A stretch of 34,318 nt of DNA from Candidatus Pacearchaeota archaeon CG10_big_fil_rev_8_21_14_0_10_32_14. GTDB taxonomy: Archaea > Nanobdellota > Nanobdellia > Pacearchaeales > GW2011-AR1. Location of the stretch: NCBI GenBank assembly GCA_002763085.1, contig PFCY01000075.1, positions 1 through 34,318 of the forward strand. Reading direction: 5' to 3'. Positions 1,511 to 33,965 of this stretch are shown piece by piece. The notes under the pieces were generated by a model. The model saw only the letters and a list, made by a program, of their open reading frames with translations, made no database searches and was not told the origin of the DNA. Position 1 is the stretch's first letter. Each line of letters begins with the position of its first letter. Position numbers and translations under genes: made by a program.

Positions 1511-1840
1511 TTAAAAATAATTTGATCCTAAATAAATTCCTAATCCCATTAAATAAGCGCTAGCTTTCATCCCTTCAAGCGGGTAAGCTAATATTTTTCT
1601 TTTAATATCAGAAACTCCTATAGGAGGTAAATCAAGTTCAGGAAATAATTTTTTAACAATATCCGTTCGAGTAGTATGCCTAAATGTTGATCCGGGTACA
1701 AGTAATATAGACAAAATTTGCTTAAAACTACCTTCGGAATCTAAGTATTCTTGAAGTAAATCCTTTTCTTCTTGAGTATGTCTTGCATCAATAGAATCTG
1801 AATTAATTGCCTCATAGAAAAGTCTACCAAAATATGGCAT
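1511..1840 (-). CDS. hypothetical protein
   Basis: 109-aa ORF directly upstream of 1240-1503 on the same strand, in a different frame. Hydrophobic C-terminus. No family recognised. Confidence 0.4.
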   Translation of the reverse strand: MPYFGRLFYEAINSDSIDARHTQEEKDLLQEYLDSEGSFKQILSILLVPGSTFRHTTRTDIVKKLFPELDLPPIGVSDIKRKILAYPLEGMKASAYLMGLGIYLGSNYF

Positions 1841-1890
1841 ACGCGATGTATCTATTTTTGTTTCTATATCATTTTCTCAAAATCCGCAAT

Positions 1891-1900
1891 ATTTAAAAAT
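1891..1900 (+). promoter_or_regulatory. TATA box (atttaaaaat) for the TrmB-like gene
   Basis: Centred about 29 nt upstream of ATG 1924. A 5-bp hairpin gtccc/gggac (1905-1919) lies between the box and the ATG and is a possible operator. Confidence 0.5.
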
Positions 1901-1923
1901 GAGTGTCCCTCTAAGGGACTACC

Positions 1924-2673
1924 ATGAATGAGATATATAAGATATTTGGACTCAATGAAAACGAAATAAAAGTCTACAAAGCATTGCTGAAATTAAAGAA
2001 AGGAACCAAAACTCCAATAGTTAAAGAATCTGGAGTTTTGTCTTCAAAAGTCTATGAAATTCTCGATAGATTAATCCGAAAAGGTCTTGTTTCCACATTC
2101 ACTGAAAACTCTGTAAAGAATTACGTTCCAGTGCCCGCTTCAAGTATTAAAATTCTTCTTGATGAAAAAATTGAATATATGAATGAACAAAAGAAATCAT
2201 TTGAAAAAAATATAAATAATCTTTTCCCTCAAAATGTAGATTATTTAACAGACGTTCAATTATACAGAGGATGGAACGGACTTAAAAACGTCTTTCACAT
2301 TCTGGCTGGAGATTTGAAAAAAGGTGACACCTATCACATTTTAGGAGTAAATCCTGGAGAAGATATTGACAAATCAATTGAATTCTTTTCTAAAACAGAT
2401 CAATTATTTTTTAGTAAAGACATTAAAATAAAAGCTATCGGTCACAACAAAAGAAAAAAAGAATCAGAATCATTCCTAAAAACGTTCGGCAGAAAAAACT
2501 TTGAAATAAGATATTGTGACCTTGTGGGACCATTCGAAATCGGAATAACCAATAATTTAGTCGTATTATTGTTGCTCGAAAAAAATCCTACAGCGTTTCT
2601 TATAAACAATAAAAAGATAAGAGATTCATTTTACGATTACTTTAATACAATATGGAAAATTTCGAAGAAATGA
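1924..2673 (+). CDS. TrmB-family winged-helix transcriptional regulator
   Basis: 249 aa. The N-terminus FGLNENEIKVYKALLKLKKGTKTPIVKESGVLSSKVYEILDRLIRKGLV is the typical TrmB HTH, followed by a C-terminal effector-type domain. Confidence 0.8.
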   Translation: MNEIYKIFGLNENEIKVYKALLKLKKGTKTPIVKESGVLSSKVYEILDRLIRKGLVSTFTENSVKNYVPVPASSIKILLDEKIEYMNEQKKSFEKNINNLFPQNVDYLTDVQLYRGWNGLKNVFHILAGDLKKGDTYHILGVNPGEDIDKSIEFFSKTDQLFFSKDIKIKAIGHNKRKKESESFLKTFGRKNFEIRYCDLVGPFEIGITNNLVVLLLLEKNPTAFLINNKKIRDSFYDYFNTIWKISKK

Positions 2674-2691
2674 TTTCTCTAAAATATAATC

Positions 2692-2704
2692 ATATTTAAA
2701 AATA
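2692..2704 (+). promoter_or_regulatory. TATA box (atatttaaaaata)
   Basis: Centred about 26 nt upstream of ATG 2724. Confidence 0.5.
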
Positions 2705-2723
2705 AGCTTTTAACTAAATTTTT

Positions 2724-3254
2724 ATGACATGTAAACTCATTGATAAAGCCCAAATTTTTGAACATGAACGATTAACGATGATAGGAATTGCAGGAACAAC
2801 TTCAACTCCATTAAATGATATTGAAGAGCTAATCAGGAAAAGATATGATTCTGCCGAAATTGCAGAAGTCCAAAATCACGAAAAAAGAGATTTTTTAGCT
2901 ACATTCTTTACAGATCCGGTTATAGATTTAACTTTTGATCAATCCAATAAAACCGATACTGGAATTATTGCATATAGTTTAAATAAACAAACCCTTTCAA
3001 AAATTATTGATGATATTGCCTCTTCTATCTCATTTGTTCCTTATGAAAATCAACCCCCATACTGGGAATCCGGATTTGAAATTGAAAAATTGACATACGG
3101 AAAATCTGAGTTGATTTCACAAGTTTTACATCAACCATTGGAAAAAATATTTGGAATAATCAGATATGCAAACTTTCTTTCAATGTATAATGGATTTCCC
3201 CGAGAAAGAGCGCAAACATTAGCATTCAAAAAATTTGATGTTGGTCTTATATAA
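2724..3254 (+). CDS. hypothetical protein
   Basis: 176-aa ORF with its own TATA box. No family recognised. Confidence 0.5.
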   Translation: MTCKLIDKAQIFEHERLTMIGIAGTTSTPLNDIEELIRKRYDSAEIAEVQNHEKRDFLATFFTDPVIDLTFDQSNKTDTGIIAYSLNKQTLSKIIDDIASSISFVPYENQPPYWESGFEIEKLTYGKSELISQVLHQPLEKIFGIIRYANFLSMYNGFPRERAQTLAFKKFDVGLI

Positions 3255-3258
3255 AAAT

Positions 3259-4041
3259 TCAAACTCTTCGTCTTTCAAGCACCTTTCGAGAAAACCATGT
3301 CACAAAATCTCGCGGAGCAAATCGAATTAAAAAAATAGCAAATTTATTTCTCACACCATTTATCGCAACAGATTTCTTTTTTATCATTGATTTATATCCA
3401 TACTCCGCAACTTCTTTAGCAGAAACAAGTTTTATTCCTTTTACAAGCTTTGATTGATTCATATTCGCATGATATTGAAAACCTGATTGCGTCGGTCCAG
3501 GGCATAAAACTGTAACACTCACTCCAGTTCCTTTTAGTTCATTGTTAACCGCCTGTGAAAACGATACAACATATGCTTTGGTCGAATAATATATTGTCAT
3601 TAGAGGTCCAGGCAAAAAACCCGCCATCGACGCGACATTCAGTATCATTCCGTTTTTTCTTGAAACCATATCTTTAGAGAATAACTTCGTTAAATGCGTC
3701 AACGCCACAACATTAAGTTCAATCATCTCTTTTTCTTTTTGCCAATCAGTTTTTATAAATTCTCCATAATCTCCAAAACCCGCATTATTTATCAAAACAT
3801 CAATCTCAATTTTATCATCTTTAATTTTTTTATAAAGTTTAAAAGCAGAATTTTCTCCACTTAAATCAATTTCAAAATAAATTACTTTGACTTTATACTT
3901 ATTTTCAAATTCATCTTTTATTTCTTTTAATTTCTTTTTATTTCTAGACACAAGAACAAGATTGTAACCTTCTCTTCCAAGAATATTAGAAAATTCATAT
4001 CCTATCCCTCTCGACGCGCCAGTGACTAATGCTGTTTTCAT
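3259..4041 (-). CDS. short-chain dehydrogenase/reductase (SDR)
   Basis: 260 aa. TGASRGIG cofactor motif, NNAG, catalytic YSTKAY (YxxxK). Confidence 0.9.
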   Translation of the reverse strand: MKTALVTGASRGIGYEFSNILGREGYNLVLVSRNKKKLKEIKDEFENKYKVKVIYFEIDLSGENSAFKLYKKIKDDKIEIDVLINNAGFGDYGEFIKTDWQKEKEMIELNVVALTHLTKLFSKDMVSRKNGMILNVASMAGFLPGPLMTIYYSTKAYVVSFSQAVNNELKGTGVSVTVLCPGPTQSGFQYHANMNQSKLVKGIKLVSAKEVAEYGYKSMIKKKSVAINGVRNKFAIFLIRFAPRDFVTWFSRKVLERRRV

Positions 4042-4051
4042 GTTTATAGTC

Positions 4052-4693
4052 TCACTTCTTCAAAAGTTTAAACGCGTGATTCCAATTATTATTCTTAAAA
4101 CCATATTCAATCCAAAGTAAAGCAAAAGCTTCAAGTAAAAAAGATTTTGAAAGATCGCCTAAATCAATTACTGATTTCCATCCAAGTTGTTTTGCTATTT
4201 CATCAACTTTTTTCTTTGCTTTCTCATCGTTACCGCAAATCCAAAGATCGGGTTCACCCTCTTCTCTTTTAGGAGAGATCATAATATTCGCGCTTATTGT
4301 ATTAAACGCTTTAACAACCCGACTTCTAGGTAGAATTTTTTGAATTTGTTCTCCTAGAGAATTTCCCTGCGTTGAGAAAAGTTTTGGCGGTACTCCCTTA
4401 GAAGAATCAAGTGCATTAGTGACATCGATTAAAGTTTTTCCTTCAAACTTTTCTTTATCACATTGATTTATAACTTCTAAAACAACATCACCCTTCGTCG
4501 CCAAAAAAATCATCTCTCCATATTTCACAGCTTCATTTGCGGTCCCTATAAATGACCGTTGTGGATTTTTCTTTATCCATTCAACAAGTTTTGATGCATC
4601 CCGTGTTCCTATCATAACTTCATGCCCACAACTTATCAAACCACTTCCTAATTGTTGCCCCACAACACCACTCCCAAGAATCCCAATTTTCAT
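4052..4693 (-). CDS. NAD(P)-binding oxidoreductase, F420-dependent NADP reductase (NpdG/ProC-like) family
   Basis: 213 aa. MKIGILGSGVVGQQLG Rossmann start and overall NpdG-like layout. Confidence 0.75.
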   Translation of the reverse strand: MKIGILGSGVVGQQLGSGLISCGHEVMIGTRDASKLVEWIKKNPQRSFIGTANEAVKYGEMIFLATKGDVVLEVINQCDKEKFEGKTLIDVTNALDSSKGVPPKLFSTQGNSLGEQIQKILPRSRVVKAFNTISANIMISPKREEGEPDLWICGNDEKAKKKVDEIAKQLGWKSVIDLGDLSKSFLLEAFALLWIEYGFKNNNWNHAFKLLKK

Positions 4694-4747
4694 AATAAAT
4701 GTTAGAAAACGTATTTTATATATTTATTGTAAACTATTTTTAAAAAA

Positions 4748-5482
4748 TTAATTAACTTTTTTGGCTAAAATAACAAAATGTGATGCAAGAGTTGGTCGTT
4801 TTGAAAAGATTTTATCTATTTTCAGAACACTCGATGGAAATCCAGATTCATATACCGCACCTTTTACCTCAAGAATCTTAAATCCGTGCATTTCTAAAAT
4901 ATCTTTTAATGCTTCAAGTGTAAATATCCTGACATGCCCTACCGGAACGCTGTCTTTCTTGAATTTCTTTAAAGGTCCGGCCCCAACCAGTTTAGATTTT
5001 GTCGACGGTTCCACAAATAATGGTTGAACTCCCATAGGCACCAGAATTCTATTGAACCAAGCGAGTAAGTTTGGAGTTGAAATAATTAAGTGACCGTCCT
5101 TTTTCAAAATCCTTCCCGCTTCCTCCAAAAAATGATCCGGATTAAAAAGATGTTCAATCACTTCTCCAGCATAAACTACATTAAATTTGTTTGAATTAAA
5201 CGGAAATTTTTCTTCAATATTTCCTTGTTTAACATTCAATCCTCGTTTATTCGCTAAATCAACTTCTTCTTGAGAAAAATCAAGCCCATTACATTTTTGA
5301 GACGGAAAAACTTTCATTACTTTAGATAAAAAAAGTCCATCTCCACACCCAACATCCAAAAACTCTCCATCCCTAAAAACTTTTACTAAAAATCTCATTG
5401 ATTCAATTTCCCTATGTTGAAGCGATCTTTTCTGATCTCTTATTTTACTCCAGTGAGCATAATGATCTATAGTTTTTGACAT
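4748..5482 (-). CDS. class I SAM-dependent methyltransferase
   Basis: 244 aa. Motif I LDVGCGDGLF and post-I LDFS, Methyltransf_11-like. Confidence 0.85.
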   Translation of the reverse strand: MSKTIDHYAHWSKIRDQKRSLQHREIESMRFLVKVFRDGEFLDVGCGDGLFLSKVMKVFPSQKCNGLDFSQEEVDLANKRGLNVKQGNIEEKFPFNSNKFNVVYAGEVIEHLFNPDHFLEEAGRILKKDGHLIISTPNLLAWFNRILVPMGVQPLFVEPSTKSKLVGAGPLKKFKKDSVPVGHVRIFTLEALKDILEMHGFKILEVKGAVYESGFPSSVLKIDKIFSKRPTLASHFVILAKKVN

Positions 5483-5521
5483 TCTAATACAAATCTACTT
5501 TTAATTTTTAAAGATATATGT

Positions 5522-5710
5522 GGGCTTCATCCCATATTACAAAAATTAATTTATTTATAATAGAGATTTTGTTTGGTATTATGGTGGGACTCGATTTGGG
5601 CGAGCAACTTCGTGTTAAGGGGTAAGGTCTTGGTTGGTGGTCGAAGTTGTGTGTTTGGCAAGTTAATTACAAACAAAATCTCACAAAAAAATTTAATTTG
5701 GGATGAGGCC
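5522..5710. repeat. Long imperfect palindromic element with GC-rich core hairpin (repeat family copy 1)
   Basis: Outer arms ggcttcatccca (5523-5534) and tgggatgaggcc (5699-5710). Middle arms gagattttgtttg (5563-5575) and caaacaaaatctc (5670-5682). Core stem 5604-5612/5642-5650. A 30-mer at 5598-5627 matches 23029-23058 at 28/30 positions. Confidence 0.8.
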
Positions 5711-5762
5711 ATATATGTGCAAAAGTTTATAATCAATAAGTTATTATAAAACAAAAGAGAAA

Positions 5763-8770: not shown

Positions 8771-9058
8771 TATCCTTACACTAACCTCTAAAAATGATAC
8801 CAAAAATAAAATTTGAATTTTATCTTTATTAAAAGAATTTGGATTAATTTTTTCGTTCGAAAAAATCTCGTTCTCCGTGTCTCATAATTTGTGAGCATTA
8901 ATCTGCGAAGTCGAGCATTTACGTCTTGGCAAATTTTTATATATATCAAGACGTGGATGGGAGTAGAGAGTTTATGACTTGAACAAAATTTCAAATCAAT
9001 AACAAGTCGTGGGCTCGAGCAACAAATAACAGAATAAAAAAAGATTTTCAACAGAGCC
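8771..9058 (+). repeat. Intergenic mosaic repeat, copy A (direct repeat of 10068-10293)
   Basis: Shares the blocks tatccttacac, atttgaattttatct, tttggattaattttt, gagcattaatctgcgaag and aaaaagattttcaacagag, in the same order, with 10068-10293. Contains a perfect 8-bp hairpin acgtcttg/caagacgt (8921-8953). Confidence 0.8.
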
Positions 9059-9855: not shown

Positions 9856-9944
9856 TTAAACCTCTTTTTCTTATGACAATGACGAAAAATAAGTATTTAA
9901 CTTTTGTGATTAAGATTAGGCTATCACATATTACAAAATTTAAT

Positions 9945-9989
9945 TTAATCGTTATACCCCGCAGCTCTGCTGCGACTGGGTCGTTGATT
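9945..9989 (+). repeat. 45-nt GC-rich hairpin repeat
   Basis: ttaatcgttataccccgcagctctgctgcgactgggtcgttgatt. The reverse complement of 16786-16829 matches at 43/45 positions. Stem cgcagc/gctgcg with loop tct. Confidence 0.8.
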
Positions 9990-10067
9990 TATTTAATATA
10001 GAGGTTTTGTTTGGTAATCGGGAGGTATTCAATTTGGATGAGATACTCCTAGCCCTAAATTGAGGGG

Positions 10068-10293
10068 TATCCTTACACAAATCTCTAAAGATCATAACAA
10101 AAATAATATTTGAATTTTATCTCTATTAAAAATTTTTGGATTAATTTTTCTGTACGATCAAATTCTGACGAAGTCAAATTTGAGAGCATTAATCTGCGAA
10201 GCAGCAAAATATTAATCAATTTTTCTTTTCCCCTCCCAGATTAGGGGGAATCGGATTCAAAAAACAAAAATTAAAAAGATTTTCAACAGAGTC
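10068..10293 (+). repeat. Intergenic mosaic repeat, copy B
   Basis: Same ordered blocks as 8771-9058. The preceding 9991-10040 resembles the left part of the 5551-5600 element (tagagRttttgtttggta). Confidence 0.8.
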
Positions 10294-10304
10294 TTTAGAA
10301 CAAA

Positions 10305-10317
10305 AAATTTTAAATAC
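10305..10317 (+). promoter_or_regulatory. TATA box (aaattttaaatac) for aspartate kinase
   Basis: Centred about 27 nt upstream of ATG 10338. Confidence 0.5.
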
Positions 10318-10337
10318 TCATCCGAAATATCTTTTTC

Positions 10338-12732: not shown

Positions 12733-14384
12733 ATTACCCTCTCCGCCATAACTTTTTCAATTGAATATCTTTCTTCCCCATCTTTCGCCCGCCAAACTGG
12801 AACACCGCAGTATCTATCCTTTTCAGGACAATAAGGTTTATCGCCAGAATCATGTCTTAAATAACAAGGAGGTCCGAACATTCCCTTAAGTTCCGGATGA
12901 ACACTCTCGACATCTTGTCTTTGCTGAAGAGTAATTCTTCCAATTTCTTCTTGCGCATTCAAACATTCTCTTTTTGTATCTTTTTGAGCAAAATTGAGGA
13001 GATCAACATTTTCCCTATATCTTATAGCTACTGCATTAGGGAGTATATAATTCGCCATCTCAGGACTAACATTCATATCGATGAGTTTATTTCTATATCC
13101 CCAAATTCTTTGCATTCCTTCACAGTATTCAACAACAGCTTGATCTCCAGAAGCTTTTACAAGCGACGGAATAATATAATCTGGTTGCCGTCCAACAACG
13201 TTTTCTAAAATAGGTCTTGTTGCAGGACTCATTCTTTGTCTTTGAGCTTGAGAATCTGCGGTATGACTTAATTTGACAGCAAATGTAAAATGGGGAATAT
13301 TTCCTGCACGAGAAAGTTTTGTAGTATGATCGAGCGTCAAAGTCATTCCTCTTAGAGTATTATAAGACGGATCAATCACAATTCTAATTGCTTCTTTGTC
13401 AGATAAAGAACTTCTAGGAAGTCCAAGTATGTCTCTTACAGAATTTGCCATTTCTTGTACAGCATGAGGTTTATAATCAACTAATCTTGAACGTCTATCT
13501 TCACCAAGTGTTCTATCAAATCCAAGAACATTATCAAATTCGGCCCTCCATTGAGCGAGTTCATTCTCTCTATTACTTCCCAAATATGATTTGGATTTAT
13601 GTTCTATAAATCTCTCTTTTTCTATTGAAGGTTTAATGAGTCCAAGATCTTTGTATTCAGGATTTCTTTCTAAAACTAAATCTACCATTTTCTTGACAAT
13701 GTAACGAATTTCTGTTGGTACATCGGATGAATTAAGTGCACTTTGATACCGTGCAAGGGTAATAAAATTTATTGAATGATAAAGATTTGCATGCATTGCG
13801 ATAGGAGAAAAATATCTCGCGACTTCTTGAGTCTTTTTATGGATCTCGGAATCATATTTTTTTATTTTCTTTTGATCTGTAAGTTTTTCTCTCGATGGAA
13901 ATCTTTCAAAGTAAGCTTCTTTAGCCGCAGGTAAAAGAGTTTCATTCCTAAATTTTTCATACATACTCATTTGAAATTCAATACATTCTTCATACACTTC
14001 TCGAGCTTTATCTTCAAGATTTGGAATAATAACTCCAGCCTTACTCATCGGAACATATCTTTGTGACACTTGTTCAGAATTATAAAAAGGATGTGTGTGA
14101 AAAAAACTCCAAAGCGCCTGCCTGCTCACTCCGCTTATTCCAAAATTGAAATTCGTATGCTGATATACAGTATGATGTCCTGCTTGCCAAGTGCCGCTCG
14201 AAATATTTCTTGCTAGTTCAATCTTTTCTTCAATCTCGTCCGGATCAACTAATTTAGAAGAATAACAGGATCTCGCTGCTGCAATAGCCAGATTAAAATC
14301 CGCATTAGGAGGATAATCTACCCTGATTAATTTAACTTTTGGGACTAAAGAATCAAAATTTTCGTACCACTCTTTTTCATCCAT
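12729..14384 (-). CDS. thyX: FAD-dependent thymidylate synthase ThyX-like, fused double-domain form
   Basis: 551 aa. First half has GHHTVYQHTNFNFGISGVSRQALWSFFHTHPFYNSEQVSQRY (ThyX signature with HTH in place of RHR). Second half has SQAQRQRMSPATRP (RQR in place of RHR). Confidence 0.75.
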   Translation of the reverse strand: MDEKEWYENFDSLVPKVKLIRVDYPPNADFNLAIAAARSCYSSKLVDPDEIEEKIELARNISSGTWQAGHHTVYQHTNFNFGISGVSRQALWSFFHTHPFYNSEQVSQRYVPMSKAGVIIPNLEDKAREVYEECIEFQMSMYEKFRNETLLPAAKEAYFERFPSREKLTDQKKIKKYDSEIHKKTQEVARYFSPIAMHANLYHSINFITLARYQSALNSSDVPTEIRYIVKKMVDLVLERNPEYKDLGLIKPSIEKERFIEHKSKSYLGSNRENELAQWRAEFDNVLGFDRTLGEDRRSRLVDYKPHAVQEMANSVRDILGLPRSSLSDKEAIRIVIDPSYNTLRGMTLTLDHTTKLSRAGNIPHFTFAVKLSHTADSQAQRQRMSPATRPILENVVGRQPDYIIPSLVKASGDQAVVEYCEGMQRIWGYRNKLIDMNVSPEMANYILPNAVAIRYRENVDLLNFAQKDTKRECLNAQEEIGRITLQQRQDVESVHPELKGMFGPPCYLRHDSGDKPYCPEKDRYCGVPVWRAKDGEERYSIEKVMAERVI

Positions 14385-16727: not shown

Positions 16728-16785
16728 AACTAAAACAAATAAACGATGTTTTTAAATTTTATTGTATAGAAAAATAACATAAATA

Positions 16786-16829
16786 ATCAACGACCCAACC
16801 GCAGCAGAGCTGCGGGGTATAACGATTAA
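16786..16829 (-). repeat. 45-nt GC-rich hairpin repeat (inverted copy of 9945-9989)
   Basis: 43/45 identity after reverse complement. Stem ccgcagc/gctgcgg. Confidence 0.8.
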
Positions 16830-16840
16830 ATCAAATCTCA

Positions 16841-17492: not shown

Positions 17493-17698
17493 CGCCCCCA
17501 CCGGGATTCGAACCCGGGTCACGGCCGATCTTCTCAACCTTTCTTATAATTCGCGTTAGCGATCTCTTTAGGAGAGGTTTTGTCGAGCGACTTCACGAAG
17601 GACTTTTATTATCAATCCCAAGTGGGGTCGCAAGTAGGAGAACCTTAGGTTCTCCAGCGTTGAAAGGGCCGCATTCTTGGCCTCTAAACTATAGGGGC
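17493..17698 (-). tRNA. tRNA-Glu(UUC) with 133-nt intron (exons 17661-17698 and 17493-17527)
   Basis: Hand-folded. Acceptor GCCCCTA/TGGGGGC, D stem GTTT/GAAT, anticodon stem CGGCC/GGCCG, loop CTTTCA|C, variable TGAC, T arm CCGGG-TTCGAAT-CCCGG, discriminator G. No CCA encoded. The exact splice junction (37/38) is assumed, and a BHB motif was not verified. Confidence 0.8.
17584..17631 (+). repeat. GC-rich hairpin repeat family copy 3 (inside the tRNA-Glu intron)
   Basis: Left arm cgagcgacttcacgaag. Stem gcgacttc (17587-17594) pairs with ggggtcgc (17624-17631). Homologous to 17961-18012. Confidence 0.7.
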
Positions 17699-17844: not shown

Positions 17845-17960
17845 AGCTTCTGTATTGTTGAGGCAACTTCCCAATTGCACATAAATTTCCTTTGGAAGGT
17901 TTTTATTTATTTGAAAAGTTATCATCTTAATACTATCGTAACAAAGAAATCCAAGCGTAA

Positions 17961-18049
17961 GCCGAGCAAGTTCACGAAGATGAAATATAGATATCCATTC
18001 CGAGTGGGCTTGGGAGTTGAATTTCTGAGCATTTAATCTGCGAAGCAGC
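17961..18049 (+). repeat. GC-rich hairpin repeat family copy 4 plus the gagcatttaatctgcgaagcagc block
   Basis: Stem caagttc (17967-17973) pairs with gggcttg (18006-18012). The block at 18027-18049 matches 8893-8910 and 10184-10201. Confidence 0.65.
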
Positions 18050-18089
18050 TAATGCCCCAGTTAAAGGGCGTACTTTAGATGTATTCAAA

Positions 18090-21697: not shown

Positions 21698-22810
21698 ATG
21701 AGAAAGAGTATTTCAAGAAGAAATTTTATCCTTACGGGGCTAGCAGGACTTGTTTCTACTTCTTTACCAAATTTAGTTTTGGCGTCAACTCATGAAAATG
21801 GTGCATTAAAAGATGTGGAAATTAGTTCGCAAGAATGGAATCCTCAAGATATAACAAGTTTAATCGAATTACCTTTTTATGTTGATGGCAAGGAGGAAAA
21901 TCAAGCTAAGGGAGAGAAATTTATAAGTACAGACATGTATCAAACGGCTTTGTGCTCTGATGGAGCATTTTCAAGAAACAGACGATGGGTAGTATCACCT
22001 CCTGTTAAAGAATTTTATGGAGATAAATTCAATGGGAGTTTTATATATGATACCGTTTCTGGAAGAGTTTTCAGCCTTGATATAGATCCAAGTTCTAAAG
22101 CATCTCCAAATATTGTCTGTAACGACGGTAGTTTTATAGTAAAATTAAGAGCTAATGAATTTATTTATGGCGACATCAAAAATGGAAGAAAAATAAAACT
22201 TCGAGGTAAATCTGAAAATAATCCGGATTCAATAAAACCTGCACTACTTCAATATTGTAATTTAAGTGACGATGGAAAAGTTATGGCGCTAAATCTAAAA
22301 GAAAGATCTCTCGTTCCACGCGAGTCATGGGAGCTGTTATATTCTCAAGGCAGCACTCGGGCAGTTTATTCTCCTCACTTTTATTTAGTTGATACTCAAT
22401 CATTTACTTTGATTGACCATAACCAGGGAAATTTACTTGTCATGGACGAAGATGCTTCAGTCTTGATCACAAGATCTCAAGGTCTTACGACAAGAGTGGA
22501 TCGAGATCAAGTAAAATCAACACTTATCGGAAACCGAAACGGAAATTATTTTCCAATGATTATAAGTCCAAACGGAAACTTTTGCGCCTATGTTCAAAGA
22601 GATAAATCACCATACTCAACAAGAATTGAGGTCAACTCTACAGGTGCTTTGTATGATATAGAGGGCTTCGTTCCCGATGTTCGAACTATCCAAGACGACG
22701 GAGGTTTTGAATCAATTCAGGGCAAATTCGATTACAAAGACGGAAATTACGTTTCAATTGACTCCTCAGAAAGAACTCACCAAAACATGAAAATCACAAA
22801 ATTAAGATAA
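21698..22810 (+). CDS. secreted protein with twin-arginine (Tat) signal
   Basis: 370 aa. SRRNFILTGLAGLVSTSLPNLVLAS fits the S-R-R-x-F-L Tat consensus. TATA tcttttaaagaaa lies about 24 nt upstream. Beta-rich, possibly propeller-like. Confidence 0.6.
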   Translation: MRKSISRRNFILTGLAGLVSTSLPNLVLASTHENGALKDVEISSQEWNPQDITSLIELPFYVDGKEENQAKGEKFISTDMYQTALCSDGAFSRNRRWVVSPPVKEFYGDKFNGSFIYDTVSGRVFSLDIDPSSKASPNIVCNDGSFIVKLRANEFIYGDIKNGRKIKLRGKSENNPDSIKPALLQYCNLSDDGKVMALNLKERSLVPRESWELLYSQGSTRAVYSPHFYLVDTQSFTLIDHNQGNLLVMDEDASVLITRSQGLTTRVDRDQVKSTLIGNRNGNYFPMIISPNGNFCAYVQRDKSPYSTRIEVNSTGALYDIEGFVPDVRTIQDDGGFESIQGKFDYKDGNYVSIDSSERTHQNMKITKLR

Positions 22811-24394
22811 TTTCTTGACCATATATTCACCATCTAATTCATAACCCATTTTTTTATAATACTCTCGAACTCCAACCCCCGAAATCACCGCAATTTTTTT
22901 GAATCCATTTTTAGAAGAAATTTCTTCCGCTTCTTTCATGAGTTGTTTTCCTAAACCTTGATGCTGAGCAACATTCTCATGTGAAATTGCGGTTTCATTT
23001 TTATTTTTCTTACTATCCGGGGGGGAGAGGGCGAGCGACTTCGTGGTAAGGGGTAAGGAAGTGGAGGTGTGCGAGGTCGCGAGTTGGGGGAAAGTGGAGG
23101 GTTTTGCGAAATCGTTTTTAATCTTTTCAAGTTCCAATGCCTGTCCATAAACATGAAGTTCTCTTACAATCGCGCAATCTTTTAATTCATGAATAAAATT
23201 TCCATTCTTCGACGGAAAACGCAATCGCAAAAGTCCATATAAAATATCTTTATCATCGACAATTTCAAGAAATAATTCTTTACCCCCGCTTGAATCATAT
23301 TCTATAATTTTCAATTTAATATTTTTTCCAAGAATTTTTTGAAAACCAACTTCTCTCATCCTTATTTCTCTCAAATGAATATTATCTTTTTTAAGATCGT
23401 CTTCAATATCTTTTCTCAAATCAAGTTTTTCTATGCCTTGAACGACAAGTTCTTTAGGGATCTCTCTCATTATCCTCATTATCCTGCAATACTCTGGAAT
23501 AAGTTTCATCATCTCTTCAACGACTTTCTTCGTCGTTTTTTCGTCATAAGGTTTGTATCCAGAAACTTTTGCAATTTTTTCTAATGGTGCTCCGGCAACA
23601 ATTTGACAAGGATAAATCTTCAATTGATCGGGTCTGAATCTCTCATCATCAAAAATCATCTTGAATAATTTTATATCTTTTTTTGGATCGCTTCCAGGAA
23701 GACCAGGCATAATATGATACCCCACTTTAAATCCAGCATCTTTTAATCGCTTTGATGCTTCAATAACATCTTGTAAAGTATGTCCTCGATTAATATTCTT
23801 GTAGATTTCATTATCAGGCATTTGAATTCCGATTTCAACTCTCGTCGTCCCGAAACGCAACATCTGTTTTATTTCTTCTTCACTGCAATTATCCGGCCGA
23901 TTTTCTATACAAAGTGCAACAACTCTATGTTGAGCTTTTTCATTAAGTTTTTTCGCCGCTTCAAGTGTTTTAGATCTGACACGTTTTTCAGTGTCTCGCG
24001 ATGCGTATGCGTAATCGCCATTTAAAACGTCATAAGTAGATTTGATCACGTATTCTTGATACTCTTTTTCATACTGCAAAAATGTTCCGCCAAGAATTAT
24101 AACTTCAATCTTATCCGTCGGATGATTCATTTTTACAAGTGCATCAAGTCGAGCAGAAACTTGTTTTACAATATCATAATCAAAAGCCATGGCTCGCATT
24201 ATCGCTGGTGATTTATCTGTATAACTCTGTGGAGTTGTTTCGCCCCCTGGACAATAAACACACGTTCCATGATTGCATTTTCGAGGTTTGAGTACAACAG
24301 TCAAAACTGTAACTCCCGCTTTGCTTCTAACAGGTTTCTTGACGGTCCCTTCTTTGACTTCTTTCTGATAAGTTTGTTGATTTGCGATTTCCAT
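22802..24394 (-). CDS. elp3: Elp3 (radical SAM + GNAT tRNA U34 modification enzyme homolog) carrying a repeat-derived in-frame insertion
   Basis: 530 aa. Cys cluster CNHGTCVYCPGG, VRELHVYGQ, GNAT QHQGLGKQLMKEAEEI. An anomalous S/T/P-rich segment lies between YG and QHQG. Confidence 0.9.
   Translation of the reverse strand: MEIANQQTYQKEVKEGTVKKPVRSKAGVTVLTVVLKPRKCNHGTCVYCPGGETTPQSYTDKSPAIMRAMAFDYDIVKQVSARLDALVKMNHPTDKIEVIILGGTFLQYEKEYQEYVIKSTYDVLNGDYAYASRDTEKRVRSKTLEAAKKLNEKAQHRVVALCIENRPDNCSEEEIKQMLRFGTTRVEIGIQMPDNEIYKNINRGHTLQDVIEASKRLKDAGFKVGYHIMPGLPGSDPKKDIKLFKMIFDDERFRPDQLKIYPCQIVAGAPLEKIAKVSGYKPYDEKTTKKVVEEMMKLIPEYCRIMRIMREIPKELVVQGIEKLDLRKDIEDDLKKDNIHLREIRMREVGFQKILGKNIKLKIIEYDSSGGKELFLEIVDDKDILYGLLRLRFPSKNGNFIHELKDCAIVRELHVYGQALELEKIKNDFAKPSTFPQLATSHTSTSLPLTTKSLALSPPDSKKNKNETAISHENVAQHQGLGKQLMKEAEEISSKNGFKKIAVISGVGVREYYKKMGYELDGEYMVKKLS
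23018..23107 (+). repeat. GC-rich hairpin repeat family copy 2, inserted in frame in elp3 (30 codons)
   Basis: 23029-23058 matches 5598-5627 at 28/30 positions. Stem gcgacttcg (23035-23043) pairs with cgaggtcgc (23072-23080). Translated on the minus strand as AKPSTFPQLATSHTSTSLPLTTKSLALSPP. Confidence 0.8.
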
Positions 24395-24439: not shown

Positions 24440-24569
24440 GCTTTGTTGAAAAAATCAAAATAAATGAGCAAGTTCGTTTATTCAATTCACTCTTTCGGGA
24501 GGGCGTGGGAGGGGGAAGGTGGTCGGATTTACGAACTTGCTAGAAATAGAAAAAGATTTTCAACAAAGC
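24440..24569 (+). mobile_element. MITE-like palindromic element (repeat family copy 5)
   Basis: Terminal inverted repeats gctttgttgaaaaaatc (24440-24456) and gattttcaacaaagc (24555-24569). Perfect 11-bp inner stem agcaagttcgt (24467-24477) with acgaacttgct (24531-24541). G-rich loop. Confidence 0.65.
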
Positions 24570-31813: not shown

Positions 31814-31863
31814 CTCATCGTCCCGTCGAACATAAAGCCATGACGGATGTCTGGCTTGAAGCT
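31814..31863 (+). repeat. Cassette-junction repeat R1
   Basis: 31824-31863 is identical (40/40) to 33266-33305. ctcatcgtcccg (31814-31825) recurs at 33891-33902. Hairpin aagcca/tggctt. Confidence 0.85.
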
Positions 31864-31914
31864 CCATTAATAAGCTCACGACTTTGGAGTAAGCATGATA
31901 TTTAATCTCACCAA

Positions 31915-33265: not shown

Positions 33266-33329
33266 CGTCGAACATAAAGCCATGACGGATGTCTGGCTTG
33301 AAGCTGCAGAAATGAGCGAGCTTGCGAGC
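33266..33329 (+). repeat. Cassette-junction repeat R2
   Basis: 40-mer identical to R1. The 19-mer aatgagcgagcttgcgagc (33311-33329) is identical to 33946-33964. Confidence 0.85.
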
Positions 33330-33876: not shown

Positions 33877-33965
33877 AAATTCGTTTCAATCTCATCGTCC
33901 CGCCGAGCGTAGAAATCTGCCGCAAGGCGATTTTGAAGCGGCATGAATGAGCGAGCTTGCGAGCG
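33877..33965 (+). repeat. Cassette-junction repeat R3 (divergent)
   Basis: Shares ctcatcgtcccg with R1 and the 19-mer with R2. Internal perfect hairpin tgccgc/gcggca. Confidence 0.65.

Follow-up and report, generated by a model that had tools for sequence, protein, structure and literature searches.

What kind of element places similar G+C-rich hairpins, all in the same orientation, at five separate positions of an AT-rich archaeal contig? The question arises from a stretch of 34,318 nt (PFCY01000075.1, assembly GCA_002763085.1, positions 1-34,318, forward strand; hereafter the window), in which an original prediction, made from the letters alone, had joined five such hairpins into one family and had proposed either a mobile palindromic element or a structured RNA. 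The flagged locus (locus 1, 5523-5710) proved to be a miniature inverted-repeat transposable element (MITE), and what the loci have in common is a hairpin module of about 65 nt that this MITE carries. We consider it likely that the loci are copies of this G+C-rich module, and that they belong to a class of small non-coding mobile DNA repeats widespread in the Nanoarchaeota, Woesearchaeota and Pacearchaeota.

The ten arms of the five hairpins were read back from the window, and every coordinate and sequence given for them was exact. The left-arm motif, GAGCRASTTCRYG, which was said to be shared and confined to the + strand, has four exact matches in the window; with one mismatch allowed, locus 5 (24466) and position 13553 are added, and all of these matches lie on the + strand. 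Dinucleotide-preserving shuffles gave 0.00 exact and 0.19 one-mismatch matches. The 30-mer reported for loci 1 and 2 agrees at 28 of 30 positions (5598-5627 and 23029-23058, repeat family D10), and the G+C-rich islands stand out as described, with a G+C content of 0.57 at 23001-23100 compared with a window average of about 0.32. Assemblies made independently from four samples contain the region in identical form. The notion of a five-copy family, however, survives only in part. A single module of about 65 nt is indeed shared, in differing contexts, but the loci are not five copies of a whole element, and the membership of locus 5 is doubtful. That the common unit is the module and not the whole element had been overlooked, as had the placement of copy 3 in a tRNA intron and of copy 2 in the reading frame of Elp3, both hosts being on the opposite strand.

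The flagged locus has the anatomy of a MITE, because its ends are sharp terminal inverted repeats (TIRs) and its copies possess 9-bp target-site duplications (TSDs) of their own. A scan of metagenomes with a 21-nt pattern taken from the hairpin module returned 20 stretches, of which 18 are on AT-rich contigs, nearly all from sample Ga0210057; the other two are chance matches in GC-rich bacteria. In 17 of the 18 AT-rich stretches there is a near-identical element of 242 bp, and the similarity stops exactly at the TIRs. The copy in the window corresponds to this element minus a clean internal deletion of 54 nt. The two ends, GGCTTCATCCCATATTAC and GTAATTTGGGATGA(A/G)GCC, match at 16-17 of 18 positions and coincide in 18 copies. 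These copies are dispersed over at least 14 Ga0210057 contigs, plus the window, and nearly all of the complete copies in which both ends were matched (about a dozen) have their own 9-bp TSD, examples being GGTACTTGT, AAAACAACC, AATCACTCG, TATCCCTAA and CCCTCTTTA. The near-identity of the other copies points to recent activity. The segment 5523-5710 is predicted to fold as one long, rod-like hairpin, with -67.8 kcal/mol for the + strand (z = -6.7) and -45.9 kcal/mol for the - strand, and only spurious short open reading frames (ORFs) overlap the 188-bp or the 242-bp element. Four of the five characters by which a MITE is recognized were found: it is short, below about 600 bp, and non-coding, it has TIRs, its TSD is of fixed length and its copies are multiple and dispersed. 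The fifth, a transposase-encoding parent insertion sequence with identical ends, was not found in the material searched. The proposal of a mobile palindromic element is borne out by the TIRs and the 9-bp TSD at the flagged locus together with at least 17 near-identical copies elsewhere, by two copies that are insertions missing from the closest relative or from all homologues, and by in-frame copies in several protein genes, which recall the Rickettsia palindromic elements (RPEs).

Beyond these contigs, a scan of GTDB with the MITE end sequence gave 18 chance matches in unrelated bacteria, and searches for the MITE in phages, plasmids and IMG/VR gave nothing. The right end of the MITE recurs on other, truncated elements (L014:127, L024:153; L-numbers denote contig stretches used for comparison, P-numbers Elp3 homologue proteins). 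A common insertion site for locus 1 and the copy in L031 was considered and rejected, since the flanks share only an AT-rich, TATA-like stretch. On L023 a 2.9-kb segment (1833-4754) has MITE-type ends and a 9-bp duplication, TCTTTGGTG, and contains a PD-(D/E)XK nuclease and a HEPN/MNT pair; because the segment is bounded by such ends, they can mobilise larger cargo. HEPN or MNT genes adjoin repeats on three more contigs (L024 224-745, L026 3277-3950 and L021 3613-4137).

The module at the apex of the MITE has the form GGCGAG-[10-bp stem, variable loop]-CGAGTWGG, with loops of 28-50 nt. The compensatory changes that had been claimed for its stem were recovered in alignments of 9, 28 and 38 copies. 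In nine hand-aligned copies, from which the covariance model R1 was built, 94% of the cells pair, compared with 27-41% when the 3' partners are slid by 1-3 columns, and changes on both sides are seen in 4 of the 10 stem pairs. The two larger alignments were fitted to the structure of the model, a caveat for their pairing figures: 92% of the cells pair in the 28 distinct copies from the window and the related metagenome contigs, with double changes in 7 of 10 pairs, and 97% pair in the 38 distinct copies from metagenome-assembled genomes (MAGs) in GTDB, with double changes in 5 of 10. The covariation score of the 28-copy alignment was reached by none of 500 shuffles. The wobble pairs, said to be admissible only on the + strand, behave accordingly: the stems of the 28 distinct copies contain 47 G·U cells and 4 A·C cells. 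Since G·U is so far above A·C, the hairpin belongs to the G-rich strand, and therefore to RNA or single-stranded DNA of that strand, and not to a symmetric duplex site. In the GTDB set (about 20 MAGs) U·G is even the majority state at three stem positions. The structure of the module is real and strand-specific; its role could be that of an RNA, of a single-strand DNA intermediate of movement, or of both.

The module, whose stem covaries, forms a cassette separable from its surroundings. The same core is found in two types of MITE whose ends are unrelated, GGCTTCATCCC... and AGTATCTCCGAT..., and the latter type contains one to three modules in tandem, after which comes a hairpin whose loop is GAAA. 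The presence or absence of the bare module is seen in other repeats, in tandem arrays (head-to-tail modules in L061), in intergenic DNA, in tRNA introns and in reading frames. At locus 4, for example, a homologous stretch in L024 has the module, and one in L031 is without exactly that block of about 56 nt. In the longer element at 9917-10320, a variant hairpin stands at the module position, with GATACTCC (10042-10049) opposite GGGGTATC (10064-10071); this is the same stem with two adjacent pairs swapped, C:G to A:U and G:C to U:A. Locus 5 folds well (z = -4.1) and is scored by R1 at 6.5 bits on the + strand and 5.9 bits on the - strand, values that suggest at best a doubtful, distant member of the family.

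Searched with R1, 210 kb of DNA comprising the window and the related contigs yielded 40 matches, which represent 28 distinct sequences; the E-values of the model go down to 1e-15 to 1e-22. GTDB was scanned at one genome per species with a structured pattern consisting of the left arm, a gap of 20-50 nt and the right arm, and 32 stretches were obtained. Four of these are chance matches in GC-rich bacteria, and the remaining 28 lie in about 20 MAGs of Nanoarchaeota, Woesearchaeota, Pacearchaeota or Nanoarchaeia, in agreement with the earlier guess of a DPANN host. In 199 kb of these GTDB loci R1 found 39 copies, 38 of them distinct. The consensus reads GGGTGG-GCGAG-CGATTTCGTGGTAGAGA...loop...CTCGTGCGARRTCG-CGAG-TAGGGTGGG. 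An exact 26-mer had no match in the GTDB genomes. Rfam, run on the window and 16 MAG loci with the gathering threshold of each family as the cut-off, reported tRNA only and nothing over the modules. As had been anticipated, the family is not described in Rfam or, as far as a limited search of papers on DPANN MITEs and palindromic repeats shows, in the literature, and a survey of 208 genomes of the phylum (bioRxiv 10.64898/2026.05.13.725050) does not mention it.

Table 1. Features of the window that bear on the hairpin module, with positions in the window and the basis of each assignment.
Feature	Position	Strand	Details
MITE copy, 188 bp	5523..5710	+	ends and deletion set by alignment to 17 other copies
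Terminal inverted repeats of the MITE, 18 nt	5523-5540; 5693-5710		GGCTTCATCCCATATTAC (left); GTAATTTGGGATGAGGCC (right)
Target-site duplication, 9 bp	5514..5522 (left); 5711-5719 (right)		ATATATGTG; read directly
Module at the MITE apex (locus 1)	5594..5659	+	stem 5604-5612/5642-5650; R1 73 bits, E = 1.8e-19
Weak, degenerate module-like hairpin	8905..8969	+	R1 17.1 bits, E = 0.0036, filters off
Longer element	9917..10320	+	left end is the MITE left end; repeat families D6 and D7; similar to L023 1833-2200 and L019
tRNA-Glu(UUC) gene with intron	17493..17698	-	Rfam tRNA 41.2 bits (small region), 135-nt gap in the anticodon loop
Intron of tRNA-Glu, 133 nt, position 37/38	17528..17660	-	missing in L009
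Module inside the tRNA-Glu intron (locus 3)	17577..17640	+ (antisense to tRNA)	stem 17587-17596/17622-17631; R1 58.1 bits, E = 3.9e-15
Intergenic module (locus 4)	17956..18022	+	stem ~17966-17975/18004-18013; R1 64.6 bits
Elp3 (radical SAM/GNAT tRNA-modification enzyme), 530 aa, intact	22802..24394	-	homologues E = 0 to 1e-175; PF04055, PF16199
In-frame insertion in Elp3, 46 codons, FAKPST...AISHEN	22973..23110	-	loop of the GNAT domain; protein alignments and DNA comparison with L009
Module inside the Elp3 insertion (locus 2)	23025..23089	+ (antisense to gene)	stem 23035-23043/23072-23080; R1 69.5 bits, E = 1.9e-18
Perfect 11-bp palindrome with G-rich loop (locus 5, doubtful member)	24467..24541	.	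nested in an outer inverted repeat, ~24440-24456/24556-24570

Two of the copies in Table 1 lie within genes and deserve separate discussion. The relatives of Elp3 have about 450-480 residues, compared with 530 in the window, and the insertion that contains locus 2 lies between the conserved HVYGQ and QHxGxG. It is missing from every aligned homologue, including that of the closest relative available, which is represented by L009 (a contig from GCA_040960315.1) and whose Elp3 is 75% identical to that of the window in a local search alignment and 85% identical in a multiple alignment. The insert has a G+C content of 0.51, compared with 0.36 for the gene, and its similarity to other copies is limited to the central 60-75 nt or so. 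The possibility that it is an intron was rejected, as no bulge-helix-bulge candidate had the expected boundaries together with flanking helices and a length that is a multiple of three; the fold of the region is no better than that of shuffles (z = +1.5). The loop is tolerant of insertion in general; other Elp3 homologues carry unrelated inserts of 20-50 residues at the same two GNAT loops (P0004, encoded at L052 1032-2516, P0045, P0062, P0081, P0092 and P0027). None of these inserts matches R1. Those of P0004, P0062 and P0081 were considered as members of the module family and dismissed on this ground; that of P0004 is a different GC-rich palindrome (AAGGGTG...CACCCTT).

Elp3 is not an isolated case. 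In other MAGs we found modules in frame, in both orientations, within genes for a class I aminoacyl-tRNA synthetase, a RIO kinase, an RsmB/F methyltransferase and an arginase-family protein. Every genic copy that we found preserves the reading frame and contains no stop codon, and no recognisable gene split by a module was encountered; one candidate for such a split, L081 2272, proved to be two separate genes. The genic copies are therefore probably translated, since if they were removed by splicing, out-of-frame copies should also be tolerated. On a contig of a Woesearchaeota MAG (L063 917-2113), the frame of RtcB, the tRNA-splicing ligase, runs into a module at its 3' end.

The tRNA-Glu(UUC) gene that hosts locus 3 was missed by ARAGORN and by Rfam in default runs, and ARAGORN called it, as Glu(ttc) with a 133-nt intron, once introns were allowed. 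The corresponding tRNA in L009 has no intron. In a blastn alignment window position 17527 abuts 17661, and the exons are near-identical (100% for the 3' exon); this junction places the intron at the canonical position 37/38. A scan for bulge-helix-bulge motifs placed the tRNA-Glu site first: its outer helix has 6 bp, its central helix 4 bp and its two bulges 3 nt each. The central helix is formed by C32-U35 with GAAG and includes one G·U pair, and there is no inner helix, so that the motif is of the relaxed kind. Left unconstrained, the arm folds with an energy 3.8 kcal/mol better than when the motif is imposed on it.

A second tRNA, in the Pacearchaeota contig L076, provides a more compact example. 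Its intron at 37/38 comprises 67 nt, of which 66 are module, in the sense orientation. The 5' splice site is at the first base of the module, and a 14-nt tail pairs with the anticodon loop, giving a bulge-helix-bulge with helices of 6 bp (outer), 4 bp (central) and 1 bp (inner) and two 3-nt bulges. From the splice geometry this tRNA may be read as Gln(CUG); ARAGORN calls it Glu(ctc). Because of their bulge-helix-bulge geometry, the copies in tRNA introns would be removed by the splicing endonuclease.

Several further observations concern the tRNA genes of these genomes. About 6 of the 39 modules in the GTDB loci lie within 300 nt of tRNA genes (L065, L067, L068 and L076), where by a rough estimate about 1 would be expected. 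Long tRNA introns (46-155 nt) are frequent and are missed by default finders (L016 2322-2442 and 7240-7454; L023 1657-1787; L073 3347-3574; window 17528-17660). The hairpin GGAAACC-GTTA-GGTTTCC is common to several introns of different tRNAs, and this sharing suggests a second intron-borne repeat. In the window, the first 16 nt of tRNA-Glu are repeated roughly 100 nt upstream of that gene (GCCCCTATAGTTTAGG, 17812-17797), within the segment 17699-17853 on the - strand; two hairpins, CCAAGAATGC and a palindrome come after this repeat. This block, which could be a tRNA 5' fragment or some other small RNA, is 86% conserved in the intron-less L009 (8387-8500).

How far can these data be explained without invoking mobile DNA? 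One alternative makes the hairpin a functional structured RNA, maintained by selection and only secondarily spread by MITEs. It might represent a family of small RNAs in which the stem stays constant and the loop varies, or it might act in cis, for instance by stabilising 3' ends or as a terminator. This alternative appears to us rather unlikely. The strand-specific wobbles, the U·G majority at three positions and the 97% pairing in the GTDB set speak for it, as does the conservation of the module across lineages whose Elp3 proteins are only 55-60% identical. Neighbouring hairpins with GAAA or GTAA loops can be read as GNRA tetraloops on that same strand only, and the commonest arrangement in the GTDB set (11 of 39 copies) places the module in sense between co-directional genes. 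Nevertheless, no Rfam family matches, and the conserved GA flanks, inspected by eye, lack the boxes and bulges of a C/D box, H/ACA box or K-turn. Copies in both orientations inside reading frames and tRNA introns are hard to reconcile with an RNA gene, and the eighteen near-identical MITE-borne copies resemble a burst. Moreover, of the 40 copies in the window's lineage, 35 carry the G-rich strand on whichever strand is locally richer in C, mostly the non-coding side; the G-rich strand is antisense to most neighbouring genes and to both host genes in the window, and in 22 of 30 cases the gene that lies upstream of the module runs the opposite way. The strand-specific hairpin keeps the structured-RNA alternative of the original prediction alive, yet it is not needed for the explanation to work. 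Another RNA-level account supposes a mobile bulge-helix-bulge intron, cut from any host RNA, the Elp3 mRNA included, and re-inserted as RNA. We judge it very unlikely, although two independent tRNA introns contain the module, that of L076 consisting of little else and beginning exactly at the 5' splice site, and that of the window showing the same geometry at 37/38. Similar intron families in different tRNAs of the Thermoproteales, reportedly described by Fujishima et al. in 2010, count on the same side. The Elp3 region, however, contains no bulge-helix-bulge that would give an in-frame, sensible splice. The flanks of the module are G-rich on both sides and cannot form an outer helix, and in both tRNAs the helix at the splice site is made by host-specific intron tails and not by the module. 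In addition, most copies are intergenic, the genic ones are uniformly in frame and stop-free, and the candidate split gene dissolved into two genes.

The orientation of the copies bears on a third possibility, that the bare module is a REP-like hairpin of single-stranded DNA moved by an HUH/Y1 transposase of the RAYT or IS200 type. This would explain the solo copies and the tandem arrays, and a strand-specific, imperfect hairpin, flanked on both sides by a conserved CGAG tetranucleotide and repeated head to tail in L061, is what it calls for. The bias in the window's lineage, which besides the 35 of 40 copies is evident in 14 of 16 loci having a single orientation, also seemed to fit. As a general property, however, the bias had to be given up, since over the GTDB MAGs the two orientations are balanced (21 versus 18). 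Within the window's lineage the MITE copies, which have inverted repeats, are biased too (14 versus 4), and this suggests that selection acts once the insertion has happened. At 28-50 nt, the loops are far longer than those of REPs, and the tag is neither GTAG nor CGTC, the two tags known from REP superfamilies (PMC3733652). No Y1 transposase was seen among the proteins scanned from genome fragments, although no systematic search for one was made. We rate movement of this type as distinctly improbable. Chance, low complexity or an assembly artefact can be set aside almost completely. Chance matches do occur in GC-rich bacteria (2 of the 20 metagenome stretches and 4 of the 32 from GTDB), but the shuffles gave no match to the motif, the E-values are very low, the region is identical in the four-sample independent assemblies and the covariation is far above that of shuffled and slid controls. 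A core derived from a tRNA, in the manner of a SINE, was also considered and rejected: with E-values of up to 10 allowed, cmscan detected nothing tRNA-like in 5480-5760, and a T-arm and acceptor cannot be drawn. The idea came from a chance match of a 21-mer in a bacterial tRNA (L032 11096-11169, D-stem and anticodon arm); the left half of the module can be drawn as a D-arm plus anticodon arm, and no tRNA model supports this drawing.

Taken together, we favor a family of small mobile DNA repeats whose module would spread by at least two routes. On one of these it rides on the MITE, and the TIRs and 9-bp TSD would be the footprint of cut-and-paste or copy-paste transposition, catalyzed by a transposase that was presumably of the DDE type, supplied in trans and making staggered cuts of 9 bp. 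On the other, the bare module might spread or change in number through recombination or slippage between copies or through a hairpin-specific enzyme. Persistence would follow from the little harm done by each insertion, the module being short and stop-free in several frames. In protein genes the survivors would be in-frame copies, probably translated, in tolerant surface loops, with Elp3 as the case at hand, and in tRNA genes they would be copies located in introns at 37/38 that the archaeal splicing endonuclease removes. We put forward more tentatively, as an idea that may well prove wrong, that the module is raw material for nanoarchaeal tRNA introns, landing in the anticodon loop and turning into a bulge-helix-bulge intron when a short tail base-pairs with that loop, that in proteins it becomes a peptide loop, and that it may move through an RNA or single-strand intermediate of the G-rich strand. 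Such an intermediate would explain the strict strand specificity of the pairing.

Several observations weigh against the mobile-repeat account. Neither the window nor about 190 kb of related contigs from the metagenome scan yielded a transposase ORF with such ends, in a test that covered multi-copy ORFs and a few neighbours; the multi-copy ORFs of the related contigs encode HEPN, MNT, PD-(D/E)XK or function-unknown proteins. Neither the solo insertion in Elp3 nor that in the tRNA intron is bordered by inverted ends or a TSD of its own. Strong conservation across orders, together with the conserved U·G pairs, is more like a functional RNA than a pure parasite. For the tRNA-Glu intron, two genomes do not allow gain to be separated from loss. 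Finally, we infer the translation of the genic copies and the splicing of the intronic ones from reading frames and predicted folds.

If the idea of the module as raw material for introns is correct, a single archaeal element would join MITEs, protein inserts of the RPE type and intron gain, which are generally considered separately. The gain of tRNA introns in archaea is an old open question, in which "transposition" has so far been inferred from sequence similarity, with no vehicle known. Here one repeat family is encountered in three settings: as dispersed mobile DNA with TSDs, in tRNA introns (it makes up almost all of one and a portion of a second, the latter missing in a close relative) and as in-frame inserts in essential enzymes. 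This provides a testable link between small mobile repeats, the birth of introns and the creation of protein loops in reduced, AT-rich DPANN genomes. There are also practical consequences, since such GC-rich islands break tRNA detection, inflate protein lengths and probably fragment assemblies.

Other repeats were noted in the surroundings of the modules. The motif GAGCATT(T)AATCTGCGAAGCAGC adjoins modules on the + strand of the window (8893-8915, 10185-10206 and 18028-18050) and is also present in L019, L023, L024, L031 and L033; it is part of a longer repeated non-coding element. A 58-nt repeat with the hairpin CCCCGCAGCTCTGCTGCGG occurs at 9938-9995 and 16780-16836 in opposite orientations, the two copies being 93% identical; the copy at 9938 is inside the longer MITE-related element. 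Another repeat has three copies (31824-31875, 33266-33317 and 33901-33952) that are 62-92% identical, and the sequence GAGCGAGCTTGCGAGC that follows it looks like the two CGAG flanks of the module without the hairpin between them.

It remains to compare the family with known systems. Prokaryotic MITEs include the Correia elements of Neisseria, the SM-type elements of Sulfolobus and MITEHwa1 of Haloquadratum. The element at 5523-5710 agrees with MITEs (reviewed in PMC10969869 and PMC11602168) in being short, non-coding and intergenic, in its TIRs and fixed TSD, in its near-identical copies and in its rod-like fold. It differs in that no parent insertion sequence was found in the material searched and in that its apex cassette also occurs outside the MITE and in MITEs with unrelated ends. 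The behavior of the module is, by analogy, closest to that of the RPEs, which are said to have been described by Ogata et al. in 2000. Like these, it is a GC-biased palindrome of an AT-rich, reduced genome that is found in frame and in either orientation within essential genes, in RNA genes and between genes. Unlike them, it has an archaeal host and about 65 nt instead of 100-150, is probably unrelated in sequence, is MITE-borne and forms tRNA introns. Because host and length differ, we do not claim membership. The BOX elements of Streptococcus pneumoniae are modular, with a variable number of internal hairpins. Our family is like them in its constant end modules, in the variable number of internal modules (one to three here) and in its stable predicted fold, and unlike them in that BOX elements are bacterial and of unrelated sequence; to our knowledge, BOX modules are not found as introns or in-frame inserts.

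With the REP/BIME-RAYT systems (PMC3733652, PMC12306157) the module shares an imperfect, GC-rich hairpin, a covarying stem tolerant of G·T, a flanking tetranucleotide and an occurrence singly or in clusters. It departs from them in having CGAG on both sides, long and variable loops, copies inside genes and no RAYT among the proteins scanned. The resemblance to archaeal bulge-helix-bulge introns (PMC3293823, PMC3239211) consists in position 37/38, in the geometry of helices and bulges, in a presence that varies among close relatives and in sequence shared between introns, whereas the module is a genome-wide repeat that also occurs outside tRNAs, in either orientation, mostly without a splice motif. 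In Caldiarchaeum a mobile element has been proposed as the driver of intron gain (PMC3293823). Neither there nor in the Thermoproteales was the intron sequence traced to a small repeat found across the genome. The module resembles RPE, REP and BOX elements and is probably not a member of any of them. The system is of a known kind and does not constitute a new category; its interest lies in the way MITE cargo, RPE-like protein inserts and the formation of tRNA introns are combined in one repeat family across a major DPANN clade.

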